DNA of 63,568 bases from an uncultured Gammaproteobacteria bacterium (GCA_964648205.1 CAZYNT010000006.1:1-63568), one strand, 5' to 3'. Counted from the first letter of the stretch, positions 1 through 43,998 are shown. Translations and numbers: made by a program. The notes: a model not told the origin generated them from the letters alone.

Positions 1-97
1 CGCGAAAGGTTGATTTATGTGGACAAGCGTGTCCGAAGAAATGGGGTCATGCCAGGAGCTTCTTTTTCAATTTGGTTATAAATTTAAAACAATTAAA

Positions 98-895
98 TTA
101 AATAATATTCTCTGATTCTGCTTTTTTAATTTTAGGTATAATGATATTCTCTGATTCTGCTTTTTTAATTTTAGGTATTATGAACGGCTTTATCATTTGC
201 TCATAGAAACATCGGAATTCTTTTGCTGCCTTATTATAATCAACATTAGTCCAACTAATACATTTTAATTTATACATCGCCTCTTTATTATCGAAACAAT
301 CTTTCATCCAATCTTTTTTACCATTCTTGAAATAATCTTTGTTTTCTTGACGCTTTTTTTCATCTTCCATTTTAACAAAATTTTTGTCCGTAATCAGCGA
401 GGAGTAATGTTTTTTAGATAACTCAAATGGCGACTGTGATAAATACACACTTCCGCAACTAGGTGTGAAGGGATATTCTAAAGAAGGATGCTCTATCATA
501 CTATTTCTCAAATACACACAATAGTACAATTCTGGATATTCTTCTTCATATTTTTTTGGGTTTTCTGGATTTTCAAAAAGTTTAACCAGAGAATACAAGG
601 TTTGCTCAATAAATGGGTATATTATAAATTTACATAAATCATAACTATCGCTTGATAAAGTTTTTCCAAATCTTTGATCAATATCGAGTTTGATTTTAGC
701 GCATTCATTTAGTCTTTCTAGAAAGTTATTTACAATTATAATTCGATGCCAAAATAATTCATATTTTTCAACTAGTAATATTTTTTCTTTATTTTTAAGC
801 TGATCATACATTTTAAAAATACCAGGGTTCTGTCTTGGGTAGATACTTTTAAAATCTACATACACCTTTTCAAACATACTTAATAAATCATTCAT
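98..895 (-). CDS. hypothetical protein, 265 aa, with a HEPN-like R-x5-H motif (RNSMIEH, aa 130-136) and a duplicated 13-aa C-terminus
   Basis: Long ORF in a very AT-rich stretch and the last gene of a 4-gene same-strand cluster. TAA stop at 98-100. No family recognised by eye. Confidence 0.6.
   Translation of the reverse strand: MNDLLSMFEKVYVDFKSIYPRQNPGIFKMYDQLKNKEKILLVEKYELFWHRIIIVNNFLERLNECAKIKLDIDQRFGKTLSSDSYDLCKFIIYPFIEQTLYSLVKLFENPENPKKYEEEYPELYYCVYLRNSMIEHPSLEYPFTPSCGSVYLSQSPFELSKKHYSSLITDKNFVKMEDEKKRQENKDYFKNGKKDWMKDCFDNKEAMYKLKCISWTNVDYNKAAKEFRCFYEQMIKPFIIPKIKKAESENIIIPKIKKAESENII
101..178. repeat. 2 x 39-bp tandem duplication (one mismatch, 104 vs 143) inside the 3' end of the 265-aa gene
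   Basis: Positions 101-139 align with 140-178 at period 39. The repeat is in frame and gives the duplicated peptide IIPKIKKAESENI. Confidence 0.9.
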
Positions 896-945
896 AATAA
901 TTTATATTCCTAATAATTTCATTTAATCAAAAGAGGAAGAATATA

Positions 946-1401
946 CTACTTATTATTCGAGGTATTATCTAATATTTTATAAGATAAATTAATATCTAAA
1001 GGGGTTTCAGAGGCAACCTCAAACTTAGAGCCCTTTTTTTGCGATATTCTGTAACAGTATCTCCCACCTTCAGTTATCTGCATACCCTGCATATTTGTTA
1101 TATTTCTTAACCTTTTCTCACCTTTTTTTGCTTTTAAAGTAACGGGAAATTCATTTAAAATATTTCCCTTAGGATCAATGAGACTTATTTTTGCTTCAAC
1201 TGAGTTATCTTTTGTATCATCTTCGATAATCCAAAAACTAATAAATTGGAGGTTAAAAGGAATAACTAATTTATCGCTTTTAGGCATATTAGCCTTATCA
1301 ATTGTTAATTGTATTTCTTCGATACAATTAAACAAACTTAGAAGATTGGTTTGAGAATCTACTGATGATTTTTCACAAATTATTGACCAAATGTTTTTCA
1401 T
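946..1401 (-). CDS. hypothetical small protein, 151 aa
   Basis: The ORF track gives 946..1548, but that N-terminal extension overlaps the upstream XRE gene. The internal ATG at 1401 (MKNIWSIICEKSS...) starts 7 nt after the XRE stop. From memory it faintly resembles small DUF6941-type proteins; this is unverified. Confidence 0.55.
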   Translation of the reverse strand: MKNIWSIICEKSSVDSQTNLLSLFNCIEEIQLTIDKANMPKSDKLVIPFNLQFISFWIIEDDTKDNSVEAKISLIDPKGNILNEFPVTLKAKKGEKRLRNITNMQGMQITEGGRYCYRISQKKGSKFEVASETPLDINLSYKILDNTSNNK

Positions 1402-1408
1402 ATTTTTA

Positions 1409-1819
1409 TTATTTAATAGATAAATTATAGGCCCCACAAGGCATAACATTCTCTTTCGCTTTATCAATAGTATTGCTTGCTGTCTTACTACCGACAAAAC
1501 CAAGAATGTAAGGGACGCTAAAATCCAAAATATTACTCCAATTTTCATAATTAAAATTCAAGGCACTGGCTATTCTATTAAGCAGAGCAAAACCAATATT
1601 AACATCTCCATTCTCAACTTTTGAAATAACCTTTTGAGTTGTTTGAGCTTCTTTGGCTAATTTTTGCTGGCTCATGCCCAGAGCTTCCCTGACATTGTAT
1701 ATTTCAACCCCCAGTTTTATTCTTTTTTTTGCTTCTCTCGAAAATTGCTCAAAATATTTACCTTTTCTGGCCTCTGACATCGGGTCAATGTTTAGTTTTT
1801 TATTATTCATATTTTTCAT
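1409..1819 (-). CDS. XRE-family helix-turn-helix protein, putative HigA-like antitoxin
   Basis: HTH_3-like segment LGMSQQKLAKEAQTTQKVISKVENGDVNIGFALLNRIASAL. It overlaps the upstream toxin gene by 17 nt. Confidence 0.8.
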   Translation of the reverse strand: MKNMNNKKLNIDPMSEARKGKYFEQFSREAKKRIKLGVEIYNVREALGMSQQKLAKEAQTTQKVISKVENGDVNIGFALLNRIASALNFNYENWSNILDFSVPYILGFVGSKTASNTIDKAKENVMPCGAYNLSIK

Positions 1820-2228
1820 AATTTTTTGGTTCTAATTTAAAAATATTCAAATATCTTTCACCAATTTTGTTTTGTTTATCCACCATCTTTTTCTCTTTAT
1901 CGGTATTATAATTAAAAGGCTTTTCAAAAGCATAAAGAAGCACTATTTTTTCTTGGTATCGAAAATAAAGAATTCTAATAACGGTTATTGCGTCCTTGGG
2001 ATTTAATATTTCAAAACAACTATATCCATGTAACGGCTTCGAAATCGGAGGAGTTGGCCTGCCTTCATTATCTTTAACATACTGTATCTTGGCATCTATA
2101 TTGGCAAGTAATTTCTGCTTTCTTTTAACAACAGACTCTTTGTCTCCTTGATTTTCTCGATATTGTTTTAAATATTCTTTTACCGGACAGTTTTTTAATT
2201 CTTTATCATAAAAATAAACTATTTCCAT
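1803..2228 (-). CDS. RelE/HigB/Gp49-like type II toxin
   Basis: 141-aa protein with the core KPLHGYSCFEILNPKDAITVIRILYFRYQEKIVLLYAFEK, typical of phage Gp49-like/RelE-fold toxins. The toxin-first order with a downstream XRE antitoxin matches the HigBA arrangement. Confidence 0.7.
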   Translation of the reverse strand: MEIVYFYDKELKNCPVKEYLKQYRENQGDKESVVKRKQKLLANIDAKIQYVKDNEGRPTPPISKPLHGYSCFEILNPKDAITVIRILYFRYQEKIVLLYAFEKPFNYNTDKEKKMVDKQNKIGERYLNIFKLEPKNYEKYE

Positions 2229-2257
2229 ATTTACACGATTAAATTGATCTCAATCCA

Positions 2258-2285
2258 ATTATATCCTATTGGATATAATTGTCAA
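2258..2285 (-). promoter_or_regulatory. consensus sigma70-type promoter (TTGACA-N16-TATAAT on the minus strand) overlapped by a perfect 11-bp inverted repeat
   Basis: On the minus strand the -35 TTGACA is at 2285-2280 and the -10 TATAAT at 2263-2258. The inverted repeat CAATTATATCC (2256-2266) / GGATATAATTG (2271-2281) has a 4-nt spacer. The site lies about 30 nt upstream of the toxin ATG. Confidence 0.6.
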
Positions 2286-2390
2286 TACTCTGACAAACTT
2301 CATTAAAATTTTGTCGTAATTACAAAAGCCCTCCCAAAATGGAAAGGCTCTTGTAAATACTGGGGATAATGAATTTATAAATCCCCCTTA

Positions 2391-4804: not shown

Positions 4805-6814
4805 TTAGAGCAATAAACCGACGATAAGGAGAGCGACTATGTTTAAAACTTTAATCATCGGGTTAATCGCCGGACCAGCTGTGTCCTTATAAGGATCGCC
4901 GACCGTATCGCCGGTAACCGCCGCTTTATGAGCATCGGATCCCTTGCCGCCGAAATTACCCGCTTCAATATATTTCTTCGCATTATCCCAAGCGCCTCCG
5001 CCCGAAGTCATGGAAACGGCAACAAAAATACCGGTTATAATCGAACCAACAAGCAAGCCGCCTAAAACTTCCAGGCCCTTGCCCGGCATAATCATGTTAA
5101 AAACAAAACCAACGATGATCGGCACGACAACCGGAATCAAGGCAGGAATAATCATTTCCTTGATGGCGGCTTTGGTAACAATATCAACCGTGCGTCCATA
5201 ATCCGGTTTTTCTGCGCCGGACATGATGCCGGTCTTTTCTTTGAATTGAGCGCGCACATCTTCAACAACTGCACCCGCAGCGCGGCCGACCGCTTTCATG
5301 GCCATAGCTCCGAATAAATACGGAAGCAGACCGCCAATAAATAAGCCGATTAAAACATAAGGATTATCAATCAAGAACTGAGCGCTGCCGCCCGAAGCTT
5401 TAATTTTATAAGTAAAATCAGCAAAGAGGACTAAAGCCGCCAAAGCAGCTGAACCGATAGCATAACCCTTAGTGACCGCTTTAGTCGTGTTGCCGACCGC
5501 ATCTAAAGGATCGGTAATGTTGCGGACATCGTCGCCGAGTTCCGCCATTTCCGCAATGCCGCCGGCATTATCAGTAATCGGGCCGTAAGCATCAATGGTA
5601 ACAATAATACCCGCCATTGATAACATGGCCATAGCGGCAATCGCCACACCGTATAAACCGGCCAAAGAAAAGGCTCCGATAATTGCTAAACAAATAACTA
5701 AAATTGGCAGCGCCGTAGATTTCATCGAAACCGCCAAGCCGGCAATGACATTAGTCCCATGGCCGGTGCGCGAAGCTTCCGCGATTCCTTTAACCGGACT
5801 AAATGCGGTTGAAGTATAGTATTCAGTAATAACAACTAATAAGCCGGTGACCAGCAAGCCGATTAAGCTGGCGAAATAAATTTTCAGGCTTAAGCCGCCG
5901 ACAATCATATACTTAGTAATCGGATAAAAAGCGATAGCCGCTAAAACGCCGGCCGCAATCAACCCTTTATATAGCGCTCTCATGATATTTTTCTTTTTAC
6001 CCAAGCGGATAAAGAAAATACCAATAATGGAAACTAAAATTGAAACTGCTCCTAAGACCAGCGGGAATAAAATAATTTTATCCTGGCCGATAAACGTGAG
6101 AGATCCTAAAACCATGGCGGCAATTAAAGTAACCGCGTAAGTCTCAAATAAATCAGCGGCCATACCGGCGCAATCGCCGACATTATCGCCGACATTATCA
6201 GCGATAACCGCCGGATTACGAGGATCGTCTTCAGGAATACTGGCCTCGACTTTGCCGACCAAATCCGCTCCCACATCCGCTGCTTTAGTATATATGCCGC
6301 CGCCTAAGCGGGCAAAAATTGATATAAGCGATCCGCCGAAAGCAAAACCTATCAAGGCGTGCAAATCATAAGTTAAAAAATAAAAACTAGCCGTACCGAT
6401 TAGGGCAAGGCCGACAACTAACATGCCAGTAACGCTGCCACCTTTAACCGCGACATTCAGAGCTTTAGCCAAGCCGCCGCGAGCCGCTTCAGTCGTCCGA
6501 ACATTGGCGCGAACGCTGACAAACATTCCAATATACCCGGTCAAGGCGGAAAAAATGGCTCCGATAATAAAGGCCAGGGCTGTCTTCCAGCCCAATTCTG
6601 GAATAAATCCGATGATTAAGAATAAGACGATGGCAACCATCGCCACGGATTTATACTGACGATTTAAGAAGGCCTTAGCTCCGGCCTGAATCGCCTTAGC
6701 GATTTCTTTCATCTTGTCGTTACCATCCGGCATGCGTAAAATTGAAGCGATTACAATGCCGCCATATAAAATAGCGACCAATGCGCTTCCGAGAATGAAT
6801 AGAGTCATCATCAT
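4805..6814 (-). CDS. hppA: membrane-bound ion-translocating pyrophosphatase
   Basis: 669-aa polytopic protein with the motifs [20 protein letters not shown] and [19 protein letters not shown]. Confidence 0.95.
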
Positions 6815-6825
6815 AATGTTGTTAT

Positions 6826-8172
6826 TTATTCTTTTTTAGTTTTTTTAATTTTTTTAGTTTTCTTTTCCTCTTTTTTCGGTTCATCCGTTAAGTCATTCTC
6901 TTTCGATTCCTCGTCGATAACTTCATCGTTCATTTTTGTTTCTTCTATAGCCTGATTTTCATCAAGTATCTCCATGCTTTCGCCGTCGCTAGCTAAAATC
7001 TTTTTCTCGCCATCTTCCGTTGCTTCGATAATATCTATCTTCCAACCAGTCAGCCGAGCAGCCAGACGAACGTTTTGTCCGTTCTTGCCAATAGCCAAAG
7101 AAAGTTTGTCGGAAGCAACCTTAACAATCGCCTTATGTTCCGATTCTTCTAGCTCAATTGAAACAACTTTAGCGGGAGCAAGCGCATTGGCAATAAATTT
7201 AGCGGGGTCTTCATTATATTCTATAATATCGATTTTTTCTCCGCCTAATTCGCTGATAATGGTTTGGATGCGGCTGCCGCGCTGGCCGACGCAAGAACCG
7301 ACAGGATCAACATTTTCCGCCTCGGTAGCGATGGCGACCTTGGAACGGGAGCCGGCTTCACGGGCAACCTCTTTTATTTCCACCAAGCCGTTGGCGATTT
7401 CCGGTATTTCCAAATAAAAAACTTTCTTTAAAATTTCTTCGCTGCGGCGCGACAAGATTATTTCCGGCCCTTTGTGCCCTTCGCGCACCTCCTTAATATA
7501 GACTTTCAAGCGATCATTAGGATTATAGCGTTCATTAAATATCTGTTCCTCTGCCGGCAAGAGGCCGATGGCTTTGCCCAAATCAACGAAGACAAAACGG
7601 CCTTCGCGGCGCTGGACAACTCCGGAAACAACTTCTTTTTCCTTACCTTTGAATTCGCCAAAAACCATATCTCTCTCCATCTCTCGCAGCTTCTGGATAA
7701 TAACCTGTTTGGCGGTTTGCGCGGCCATGCGTCCGTAGCTTTCGGGAATCGGCAGATCGGTAATGATTTCATCCCCTATTTTGGCTTCATGTTTTAAAAT
7801 CATTGCCTCTTTTATCTGAATATCCGTTTTCGGGTTAAATTTCTTTTTTCCTTCTTCAATTATCTCTTCCTCGGGAACATAAAAACCGGCACGCGATTCC
7901 TCCTTCTTTACTTCTTTGGGGCTGGGATTATAAAGATTTTGAAGCATTTCCGCTTCTTCCTGCTCCGGTAGATTTTCCACGACTGTTTTAACATCAAAAA
8001 TTTCAGAGTTTCCGGTATTGGGATCAAACTTTACTCTTATATTTTGATTGCGCTCGCCATAATCTTTGCGATAGGCGGCGGCAAGAGCGAGTTCGATCGC
8101 GGCAATCACTGATTTATAGTCGAGATTTTTTTCCTCGCATAGCTGCTTAATCGCTGTACTTATTTCTGACAT
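6826..8172 (-). CDS. nusA: transcription termination/antitermination factor NusA
   Basis: S1 and KH domain sequence ([34 protein letters not shown]) with a Lys/Glu-rich tail. Confidence 0.95.
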
Positions 8173-8221
8173 ATATTTATCGATAATGTCGCTCCATTAA
8201 GAGCGAAGTTAGTTTTTAAGA

Positions 8222-8840: not shown

Positions 8841-10319
8841 ATGAGCTTAGCTAAAAAAATCGCCCATAATACTCTAATTCAGACCGCCGGCAAGATAGTT
8901 TCGACCGTTCTCGGTCTTTTTTCGCTTGCCCTTATTACCCGCTGCCTGGGACAGGCCGGCTTCGGAGAATATACAACCATTATCACGTTTCTCACTTTTT
9001 TTGCTGTTATCGCCGATCTCGGCCTGACGCTGGTTACCGTGCAGATGATTAGCGGCCAAAAAAGCGAGGAAAATAAAATTCTCAATAATCTTTTCAGTCT
9101 TCGTTTGGTTTCCGCCCTGTTATTTCTCGGCTTAGCTCCGATCACCGTGGTTTTCTTTCCTTATGGCGCCGCGGTAAAGGTTGGTGTTCTTATCGCCGCT
9201 GTTTCTTTTATTTTTCCAGCTCTCAATCAAGTACTGGTCGGTCTCTTTCAAAAAAAATTAAGCATGGACCGTTCTGCCCTGGCCGAGGTCATAAGCCGGG
9301 TCGTTTTAATTCTCGGCATTATTTTGACCAAGAAATTGGGCGGCGGCTTAAATGGTATTTTAATAACCACTATCGCTTCAAGCGGAGCCAGCTTTCTCTT
9401 GCACTATCTTCTGGCTCTGAAATTCGCTACTGTAAAACTTGAGTTTGATTTGTCTTTATGGAAAAAAATTATTAGTCGTTCTTGGCCGCTGGCCATTACT
9501 ATTGTTTTGAACTTAATCTACCTGCGCGCCGATACTTTAATCCTGTCATTATTCCGCGGGCCGGAGGTGGTCGGTCTTTATGGGGCGGCTTATAAGATAA
9601 TAGATGTCTTAACAACGCTGCCTTTTATGTTCGCCGGTTTGATTTTGCCTATCCTTACGGCCGCTTGGCTGGAAAATAATAAAAGCTATTTTAAAAAAGT
9701 ATTACAAAAATCTTTTGACGTTATGGCGATTATCGCCATCCCGCTAGTAATCGGGGCGCAATTTTTAGGAAAACCGGTTATGTTTTTTGTGGCCGGCAAC
9801 GATTTTGTTATGGCGGGCGGCATCTTAAAGATTCTTATCTTTGCCGTCGCCGCGATTTTCCTGGGAACGATGTTTTCTCATGCTGTTATTGCTATCGACA
9901 AGCAGAAGAAAATGATCGGCTTTTACGTCTTTACTAGCATAAGCTCTCTAGTTGCTTATCTGTACCTGATTCCACGATATTCTTATATCGGTGCGGCCAG
10001 CGTTACTATCTACAGCGAAGTACTAATTGCCGTTTTCTCGGCTTATTGTATCTTTAAATATAGCCGCTTCTTGCCCCGACTTGTAACCCTCTTAAAGGCC
10101 TTGCTCGCGGGCGCCATTATGGGCGCCTTCATCTATTTCTTCCCGATTAACTACCAAGAAACTCTTTGGAACCTATTGCTTGTGATAGTTCTCGCTAGCC
10201 TTATATACTTTTTGGCTTTATTTTTCCTGGGAGGAATCAGCCCCGAGGATGTAAAGTCAATTTTCAAAAAACAGACCAAGGGCGGCGGCCAAACCTATGA
10301 TCCAGGAATCAACTTCTAA
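8841..10319 (+). CDS. MOP-superfamily oligosaccharide/polysaccharide flippase (Wzx/MurJ-like)
   Basis: Polytopic membrane protein of about 490 aa. I prefer the ATG at 8841 (MSLAKKIAHNTLIQTAGK) over the TTG at 8760. Confidence 0.8.
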   Translation: MSLAKKIAHNTLIQTAGKIVSTVLGLFSLALITRCLGQAGFGEYTTIITFLTFFAVIADLGLTLVTVQMISGQKSEENKILNNLFSLRLVSALLFLGLAPITVVFFPYGAAVKVGVLIAAVSFIFPALNQVLVGLFQKKLSMDRSALAEVISRVVLILGIILTKKLGGGLNGILITTIASSGASFLLHYLLALKFATVKLEFDLSLWKKIISRSWPLAITIVLNLIYLRADTLILSLFRGPEVVGLYGAAYKIIDVLTTLPFMFAGLILPILTAAWLENNKSYFKKVLQKSFDVMAIIAIPLVIGAQFLGKPVMFFVAGNDFVMAGGILKILIFAVAAIFLGTMFSHAVIAIDKQKKMIGFYVFTSISSLVAYLYLIPRYSYIGAASVTIYSEVLIAVFSAYCIFKYSRFLPRLVTLLKALLAGAIMGAFIYFFPINYQETLWNLLLVIVLASLIYFLALFFLGGISPEDVKSIFKKQTKGGGQTYDPGINF

Positions 10320-10327
10320 ATATTAAT

Positions 10328-11116
10328 ATGAATACAGACGCAATAAAAAATAATTTTCCGGAAATAATTTTTGAAAATAAAGACTATCTTGTTATTAATA
10401 AGCCGGCCGGTTTAGCCGTCCATGGTGGTGGTAATATCAAAAGCGCCACTTTAGCCGATTTTTTAATTGAGCGCTACCCTGGCATCGAAACTGTCGGCGA
10501 TGATCCGATCAGACCCGGCCTAGTCCACCGCCTTGATAAGGAAGTCAGCGGGCTGATGGTTATAGCGAAGAATAATAAAACATTTTTGAGTTTGAAGAAA
10601 CAATTCAAGGATCGTGATGTTAATAAGGAATATACCGCCCTGGTCCACGGAAAAATGTTAAATAATTTTGGCACCATAAATTTCCCCATCAAAAGATCCA
10701 GCGAAGGATATAAAATGGCGGCTTTGCCTTTAAATACTGCAAATCTATTAAGTCGGCGGCGGCCGAAAGAACGCGATCGCGGAAATCTTGATGGTTTTTT
10801 TAAAGCGCGCGAAGCGATAACCGAGTATACTGTTCTTAAAAAATTTTTCAACTACACTTTGCTCCAAGTAAGCATAAAAACTGGGCGGACCCACCAAATC
10901 CGAGTTCATTTTTTCGCCCTTGGCCATCCGCTGGTCGGCGACAATCTTTATTTCAATAAAAAATCCAAAGTCCAAAATAAAAAATTGGGCCTTGAGAGAA
11001 TATTTTTATTCGCTAATAAGCTAAGTTTCAAGGACAAAAATGGTGAAACTAAAAACTTTTCGCTTGGTGCGCCGAAAGCTCTTGACGATTTTTTGAAAAC
11101 CTTGAAACAGCTTTGA
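10328..11116 (+). CDS. RluA-family pseudouridine synthase
   Basis: Motifs LVHRLDKEVSGLMV and GRTHQIRVHF. TGA stop. Confidence 0.9.
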   Translation: MNTDAIKNNFPEIIFENKDYLVINKPAGLAVHGGGNIKSATLADFLIERYPGIETVGDDPIRPGLVHRLDKEVSGLMVIAKNNKTFLSLKKQFKDRDVNKEYTALVHGKMLNNFGTINFPIKRSSEGYKMAALPLNTANLLSRRRPKERDRGNLDGFFKAREAITEYTVLKKFFNYTLLQVSIKTGRTHQIRVHFFALGHPLVGDNLYFNKKSKVQNKKLGLERIFLFANKLSFKDKNGETKNFSLGAPKALDDFLKTLKQL

Positions 11117-43908: not shown

Positions 43909-43924
43909 GTATAATATTGTTATG

Positions 43925-43998
43925 TGGGCATAGATGGACTTGAACCATCGACCCCCGCTTTATAAGAGCGGTGCTCTAACCAGCTGAGCTATATGCCC
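43925..43998 (-). tRNA. tRNA-Ile(UAU)
   Basis: Reverse complement GGGCATA-TA-GCTC-AGCTGGTTA-GAGC-A-CCGCT-CTTATAA-AGCGG-GGGTC-GATGG-TTCAAGT-CCATC-TATGCCC-A. Positions 34-36 read TAT, and the body resembles bacterial tRNA-Ile. Confidence 0.85.

Follow-up and report, generated by a model that had tools for sequence, protein, structure and literature searches.

The closest described relatives of the locus treated here are the tripartite toxin-antitoxin-chaperone (TAC) systems, a family currently defined by its SecB-like chaperone and represented by HigB1-HigA1-SecB(TA) of M. tuberculosis (Rv1955-1957) and by HigBAC and CmdTAC of E. coli. TAC antitoxins have at the C-terminus an extension (ChAD) that differs in length and sequence from one to the next; it makes them dependent on a dedicated SecB-like chaperone, and its removal restores independence (PMC5105189). 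The chaperone of E. coli HigBAC is also a phage sensor (bioRxiv 10.1101/2024.02.24.581848), and antiphage TAC systems are found on mobile elements and in defence-type neighbourhoods (bioRxiv 10.1101/2024.02.24.581848; PMC11618068). The subject of this work is a stretch of 63,568 nt (CAZYNT010000006.1), analysed over its full length and called the window below, whose AT-rich left end holds four minus-strand genes, encoding a HigB-like toxin of 141 amino acids (aa), an XRE antitoxin of 136 aa, a protein of 151 aa (these three are called the trio) and a protein of 265 aa. We propose that positions 946-2285 form an autoregulated tripartite toxin-antitoxin (TA) operon that resembles TAC and makes up the constant head of islands inserted at tRNA-Gly(GCC), followed by swappable cargo genes, a reading to which, taken as a whole, we give about an even chance.

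The trio shares with the TAC systems the operon order (toxin, antitoxin, third protein), a toxin apparently of the HigB/Gp49 type with an XRE/HigA-type antitoxin, and an occurrence on mobile elements in a defence-type neighbourhood. Its antitoxin tail is variable in length and sequence, has many aromatic and hydrophobic residues and is lacking from two-gene relatives, which fits the description of ChAD (PMC5105189). It differs from them in its third protein, a nine-stranded sandwich distantly related to DUF6941 instead of SecB, and in its confinement to uncultivated Patescibacteria; a chaperone dependence of the antitoxin would here be by analogy. Because a SecB-like third protein was looked for and not found, the trio falls outside the TAC family as now defined; it probably works like a TAC system nonetheless. 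No literature report of a tripartite TA system in Patescibacteria was found.

A three-gene unit behind one promoter

Seventy loci were fetched by way of the third protein and the toxin (numbered L001 and so on), and the order toxin, XRE, 151-aa protein, the same as in TAC, recurs in about 40 distinct Patescibacteria loci, over a range of toxin identity from 87% down to 35%. The toxin and XRE genes overlap by 4-17 nt, the third gene begins 1-20 nt past XRE (about 30 loci), and the three proteins diverge in step; we have little doubt that the trio forms one unit. In the window, open reading frame (ORF) calls on the minus strand place the toxin at 1803-2228, the XRE antitoxin at 1409-1819, the third gene at 946-1401 and the cargo gene at 98-895, with an overlap of 17 nt between toxin and XRE, a gap of 7 nt between XRE and the 151-aa gene, and a gap of 50 nt between the 151-aa and 265-aa genes. 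In a mechanical list of ORFs the third gene runs on to 1548; since every homologue (40/40) begins with MKN(I/V)WSI, its start was fixed at 1401. A preliminary description of this DNA had given the same four genes and spacings, in exact agreement with ours, and had taken the last two as orphans within a single four-gene system. The 151-aa gene proved instead to belong to the TA operon as its third gene, strictly conserved together with the other two, and the co-conservation stops at three genes, the 265-aa gene being missing from all 69 related loci examined.

The trio lies behind a sigma-70-type promoter at 2258..2285 (minus strand), TTGACA-16-TATAAT, with 12/12 consensus positions, so that the single consensus promoter first described for the cassette stands. 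A 20-bp palindrome, TTATATCC-AATA-GGATATAA (2259..2278, minus strand, read from the sequence), overlaps the spacer and the -10 box. The upstream regions of 12 loci are unalignable except for TTGAC(A/T)-ATTATATCCAATAGGA-TATAAT, which is essentially invariant, and the palindrome is invariant or nearly so in all 12. It is the presumed operator of XRE, and autorepression by an XRE dimer would be expected from the arrangement; a palindromic operator within the promoter, as in autoregulated type II systems of the HigBA kind, is thus present at the sequence level. No terminator-like site was found on the minus strand between the four genes, the 50-nt gap before the cargo included. A terminator-like hairpin separates the cassette promoter from the tRNA-Gly gene (2329..2347, minus strand), within a segment of about 60 nt that is conserved in L016 and L015.

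The 141-aa protein appears to be a Gp49/HigB-like toxin of the RelE superfamily: the Pfam family Gp49 (PF05973, DUF891) is matched by 12/12 aligned members of the toxin family (best E=5.5e-6) and by the window toxin at E=0.024, and the best PDB match of the family profile is a HigB (6af3, weak); no NCBIfam match was obtained for the toxin. The antitoxin matches Pfam HTH_3 (E=3.9e-11), and its alignment resolves a conserved N-terminal segment (residues 1-35), a helix-turn-helix (HTH) domain (36-92) and a C-terminal tail (93-136). Its gene lies downstream of the toxin gene and overlaps it in all loci, an arrangement in keeping with type II TA of the HigBA kind, and the earlier reading of a HigB-like toxin/XRE pair is supported. 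In-frame nonsense codons were found in 5 of 48 distinct toxins, from three independent events, versus none of 43 XRE and none of 41 third-gene sequences, a decay specific to the toxin that may be taken as a signature of toxicity. The three events are TAG31 and TAG38 in the L015 toxin (7170-7592), TAA at the invariant E102 in L030 (221-634) and TGA18 in L034 (478-900), with intact XRE and third genes next to each. On these grounds we consider it likely that the trio is a TA system, with the first protein presumably toxic.

Two-component HigBA or Gp49-HTH modules (PF05973 + XRE) have in common with the trio an apparent Gp49-family toxin gene placed upstream of an overlapping XRE gene, a palindromic and apparently autoregulated promoter, and a conserved segment N-terminal to the HTH that could neutralise the toxin. 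What sets the trio apart is its obligatorily linked third gene, its antitoxin tail and its divergent toxin.

The antitoxin tail and the 151-aa protein

The C-terminal extension of the window antitoxin (residues 93-136, NWSNILDFSVPYILGFVGSKT...AYNLSIK, encoded at 1412..1543 on the minus strand) is ChAD-like. In loci that have the third gene, XRE is always 131-165 aa long, with 33-65 residues beyond a conserved NWSxIxxF motif. The tail starts as a hydrophobic, aromatic, strand-like stretch (PYILGFVGS, PVKFYWVGA, PAVRVIIASG, SYVFIGA and others) and in close relatives is closed by a second aromatic motif, E(A/S/T)(Y/F)N(L/I). In L035, L051/L053 and L057-60, all with more than 4 kb of downstream sequence, there is no third gene and XRE has only 110 aa; the toxin of these two-gene loci is intact, and an unrelated gene follows 100-134 nt downstream. 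A short XRE beside an intact toxin argues that XRE alone is the antitoxin, and the same co-variation argues that the tail and the third protein are a dispensable pair, gained and lost together. That the two are coupled we hold only tentatively, at slightly less than an even chance.

The 151-aa protein has 44 homologues (47-88% identity), all in Patescibacteria-type assemblies. The preliminary description had named AlphaFold modelling and Foldseek as a check on it; carried out here, the AF2 model is an all-beta sandwich of nine strands (pLDDT 88.5), for which Foldseek returned from the PDB generic Ig-like or carbohydrate-binding sandwiches alone (TM 0.4-0.5) and from BFVD nearer neighbours among small uncharacterised phage proteins (TM 0.68/0.76, E=6e-7). 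DUF6941 (PF22091), the one Pfam family that came up for it, is matched weakly by 37/41 members of the family (best E=3.2e-5) and by the window protein at 17.6 bits, against a gathering threshold of 27, which suggests a distant, sub-threshold relative of DUF6941; no paper mentioning DUF6941 was found. A SecB-like identity was rejected, the protein being a beta sandwich with no SecB likeness in sequence or fold. Also rejected was a phage or plasmid source for the third gene, as tblastn gave no match among INPHARED phages or PLSDB plasmids and none was found in IMG/VR.

Three loci carry the gene in other settings. In L026 (5449-8096) a standalone homologue lies 3 nt upstream of the gene for a 733-aa membrane protein with Wzy_C and TPR domains, in L022 (5645-8866) another follows an AbiEii-type gene pair at the tRNA-Gly hotspot itself, and in L027 (6285-6716) a diverged second paralogue of the 151-aa protein follows immediately after the first, in tandem.

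These settings bear on a rival explanation, in which a two-component HigBA-type addiction module is accompanied by a passenger: the 151-aa protein would have a function of its own (ligand- or glycan-binding, or phage-derived) and would merely ride on the TA promoter. Such a passenger would fit the standalone homologues without a TA pair, one of them directly before the Wzy_C/TPR protein, the paralogue in L027, the structural neighbours among carbohydrate-binding or Ig-like sandwiches and small phage proteins, and the two-gene relatives, which function without the 151-aa protein. It is difficult to reconcile with a third gene that keeps its place at 1-20 nt over about 40 loci while later genes exchange, whose presence follows the antitoxin tail, and which is never interrupted, even beside broken toxins. 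We regard the passenger as rather unlikely, yet as an explanation to be reckoned with.

Several observations weigh against the TAC-like operon that we favour. Homologues of the 151-aa protein without any TA pair exist (L022, L026), and the protein may therefore have an independent function. The tail-less two-gene loci make up roughly one XRE clade, so that a single deletion, taking the 3' end of XRE and the next gene, could give the observed pattern. Neither SecB nor any known chaperone was among the Foldseek and PDB profile matches of the 151-aa protein. The window toxin, at 15.1 bits, falls under the Pfam Gp49 cut-off of 23.9, and the top PDB match of the toxin family profile, S. pneumoniae HigB (6af3), covers the full length yet is weak (E=0.25). 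Lastly, neither the toxin nor the third protein is matched by a PADLOC model; for this reason an antiphage role of the trio is argued from context, and we think it possible but doubtful.

The tRNA-Gly islands and their cargo

The window is an entire contig, and its left edge lies 97 nt past the 265-aa cargo gene. The GC content is 0.292 over positions 1-2390 versus 0.404 over the remainder, and 1-2390 is the minimum among all stretches of 2390 nt in the contig (median 0.405). ARAGORN and Rfam place tRNA-Gly(GCC) at 2391-2465, tRNA-Leu(UAA) at 2479-2563 and the tmRNA at 2602-2988, all on the minus strand, and smpB and the trigger factor gene come after the tmRNA. The sliding-window computation and the RNA annotation thus confirm the AT-richness of this end and its location 3' of the tmRNA, tRNA-Leu and tRNA-Gly, both put forward in the preliminary description, and its identification as a horizontally acquired small island remnant at tRNA-Gly is supported.

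Among the relatives, L007 has an element of 5.2 kb in which tRNA-Gly is followed by an integrase, an excisionase, the trio, DpnI, a 63-aa gene and a HEPN protein, enclosed by a direct repeat of 68 nt from the tRNA-Gly 3' end. The 6.0-kb element of L019 shows this layout too, and its direct repeat, likewise from the tRNA-Gly 3' end, is 30 nt long and perfect. Remnants resembling attachment (att) sites occur in L009, L015 and L018, that in L015 being a 19-nt fragment of the tRNA-Gly 3' end upstream of the trio, without a tRNA gene. The attachment site of the island family is the tRNA-Gly(GCC) 3' end. An integrase and a direct tRNA-Gly repeat had been named earlier as features to be sought. Both surround the trio in L007 and L019, and neither is in the window: it has no integrase and no second copy of the tRNA-Gly 3' end, either at up to 3 mismatches or as a repeat of at least 12 nt. 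The integrase of the window copy may have been lost or decayed, or the contig may stop before reaching it. In L015, a GC-rich stretch (6900-7030) stands ahead of the tRNA-Gly fragment, of which a second copy lies at 6801-6816; a Rfam scan of the GC-rich stretch gave no match.

Like other tRNA/tmRNA islands with a tyrosine recombinase, these elements occupy a tRNA-Gly 3' end next to ssrA, have an atypical GC content, and in relatives possess direct repeats, integrase and excisionase genes and swappable DpnI, HEPN, Fic or TA cargo. They differ in their size of 5-6 kb without replication or transfer genes, in the lack of an integrase or second att copy in the window, and in a constant TA-type module that comes first in the cargo region and apparently drives cargo transcription.

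The GC content of the trio stays at 0.26-0.31 regardless of that of the host locus (0.25-0.42), and in L007 the trio stands at 69-74% identity versus 51% for trigger factor and 60% for SmpB. Better conserved than either in distant hosts, the trio is mobile. Were these ordinary core genes of the lineage, one would expect the very good conservation of the 151-aa protein and its position near trigger factor-SmpB-tmRNA-tRNA-Leu-tRNA-Gly, which is seen in six fetched genomes, the window's included (with the trio in L016, L007, L009 and L019, standalone in L022). The data already contradict such an origin, however: the composition is atypical in every host, an integrase and att repeats exist, the trio sits at unrelated sites beside a DpnII restriction-modification system (L015) and between sugar-metabolism genes (L021), and the equally related L022 has other content at the site. 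Core ancestry is thus extremely improbable, and in place of the conserved core synteny that the preliminary description had set against its own proposal we find mobile genes of atypical GC content.

The islands also bring up the possibility that the trio is not a TA system at all, and serves as the regulatory or maintenance module of the island, with XRE as island repressor and its two partners as accessory regulators of excision or of cargo expression. In L007 and L019 the integrase and excisionase genes immediately precede the trio; this order, the invariant promoter and operator and the apparent transcription of cargo from the trio would all agree with such a role. It accounts poorly for a first gene in the Gp49/HigB toxin family, for nonsense mutations in the toxin gene alone and for the persistence of the trio without an integrase in the window, L016, L015, L021 and L023, and we judge it improbable.

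The genes after the trio vary by locus and are nearly all different: DpnI in L007 and L019 (with a fragment in L009), the HEPN protein in L007, a weak Abi_2-like pair and other orphans in L016, RhuM-Fic in L020, an XRE-Panacea antitoxin with a partner gene in L025, and a serine hydrolase in L018. The DpnI gene begins 0-2 nt past the third gene (L019 8450/8451; L009 6456/6459), a spacing that implies transcription of the cargo from the TA promoter, under the control of XRE.

In the window the cargo is the 265-aa gene, whose product belongs to a rare family. A word-indexed search returned the protein itself alone, and the profile version added P0057; an exhaustive HMMER search found 12 distant homologues of equal length among 1.84 billion representatives, by which its status as a true singleton was rejected. 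These homologues are solitary and belong to other phyla, as in a Bacteroidota-like contig where one stands beside RhuM and an IS200-type transposase. Because the gene is absent from the related loci and its distant homologues are solitary, we take it as replaceable cargo. The 13 sequences of the family share the motif YPE..Y...LRNxFx(Q/E)HP, in which E122, R130, N131 and H136, together with P237 outside it, are invariant and Q135 nearly so; the window protein has RNSMIEH at residues 130-136 (codons at 488..508, minus strand, from the family alignment).

HEPN RNases (Abi_2/AbiD-F, HepT) resemble this family in being all-alpha and in a motif of the Rx4-6H form with a polar residue after R, to which R-N-x3-(Q/E)-H conforms, and the same slot holds true HEPN and Abi-like genes in relatives. 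The family differs from them in having no HEPN match in Pfam, Foldseek or hhalign and in carrying the motif in a loop. The AF2 model (all-alpha, pLDDT 80.7) puts the motif in a low-confidence loop and not at a helix start, and gave no Foldseek match in the PDB at E<=0.001; HEPN-type Pfam models matched none of the 13 members, the protein has no Pfam, PADLOC, NCBIfam or PHROG match, and hhalign of the family against the HEPN and Abi_2-like neighbours gave a probability below 1%, a weak result from a shallow profile of 13 sequences. Homology to the 262/273-aa and 287-aa cargo proteins of L016 or to the HEPN protein of L007 was rejected by comparison and hhalign. The HEPN-like motif pointed out in the preliminary description is therefore real, being conserved in the family, and the HEPN fold is unsupported.

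The preliminary description had placed the 265-aa protein as a HEPN-like effector in a four-gene, TA-regulated abortive-infection or defence cassette. One strong promoter with no intergenic terminator behind it, the invariance of E122 and of RNx3(Q/E)H, and the DpnI, true HEPN and Abi_2-like proteins in the slot of relatives would be in keeping with such a cassette. The 265-aa gene, however, occurs in no other trio locus, its homologues stand alone in unrelated contexts, and no Pfam, PADLOC, Foldseek or hhalign link to HEPN or Abi_2-like proteins was obtained, so that we find a four-gene system improbable. The defence-type context as such is a plausible part of that proposal, given the DpnI, HEPN, Abi-like and Fic genes that relatives carry in this position; it is the four-gene composition that did not stand. 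That the cassette matches no described system also held, PADLOC, NCBIfam and PHROGs being empty for three of the four proteins; with PADLOC-DB 2.0, XRE alone matched, to generic HTH and control-protein models.

Some further features of the contig were recorded. The 3' end of the 265-aa gene contains a tandem duplication of 39 bp with 97% identical copies (101..178), which adds 13 residues (IIPKIKKAESENI twice), and the homologues terminate upstream of it. Directly after the cargo gene lies a 28-nt motif, ATTTATAACCAAATTGAAAAAGAAGCTC (also ATTTATAACCAAAYTSMAAAAGRAGCTC; 56..83, minus strand), with no further copy in the 63.5-kb window. L001/L016 have it behind three cargo genes (in L001, the closest relative, at 8161-8188, 9841-9868 and 10357-10384). 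It might mark a cassette boundary, serve in recombination or act as a terminator common to these genes. A plus-strand ORF at 1-81 was considered as a host gene bounding the island and dropped, as it has 27 codons only and coincides with a match to the 28-nt motif that recurs at the cargo boundaries of L001. The tag peptide encoded by the tmRNA (2602-2988) is AKTARAFTWLTPSYAPVMA, with ...PVMA as its last residues, an ending found also in the closest relatives: the tag of L022 is identical, and those of L001 and L019 likewise finish in ...YAPVMA. Bacterial tmRNA tags usually end in ...ALAA. ARAGORN also finds a tRNA-Ile with anticodon TAT at 43924-43998, a tRNA that is uncommon in bacteria.

Proposed mode of action and significance

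In the mechanism that we propose, XRE would repress the operon through the palindrome between the -35 and -10 boxes and would also neutralise the Gp49/HigB-like toxin, presumed to be a ribosome-dependent mRNA endonuclease. The 151-aa sandwich would bind the hydrophobic, aromatic tail of XRE, so that the antitoxin would become dependent on the 151-aa protein or controllable by it, as in the logic of TAC with an Ig-like sandwich replacing SecB. Were the third protein lost or diverted, the toxin would be set free, which could result in addiction to the island and possibly in abortive phage defence. The genes after the trio would be interchangeable and read from the trio promoter, the present occupant being the 265-aa protein with its E...RNx3(Q/E)H motif. 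In a wider form of this proposal, which we put forward as a speculation less likely to be right than wrong, the trio would be a new chaperone- or adaptor-dependent TA class widespread in the Patescibacteria (the candidate phyla radiation), in which a DUF6941-like, Ig-type sandwich holds the antitoxin tail and may sense phage and release the HigB-like RNase, and the module would stabilise mini-islands at tRNA-Gly and drive their defence cargo.

The 265-aa family, in which E...RNx3(Q/E)H is invariant, is a candidate for a new family of effectors, and the island family is a convenient marker for finding new cargo genes. Elements of 5-6 kb whose att site and head module stay the same while the defence cargo is exchanged amount to a compact natural cassette system. 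If the proposed role of the 151-aa protein is true, it would be the first functional lead for the DUF6941 superfamily, to whose relatives some small uncharacterised phage proteins belong, and a second fold, unrelated to SecB, would mean that addiction of an antitoxin to a partner protein evolved more than once. The trio and its islands belong to the Patescibacteria, episymbionts that have not been cultivated and about whose mobile elements and defences little is known.

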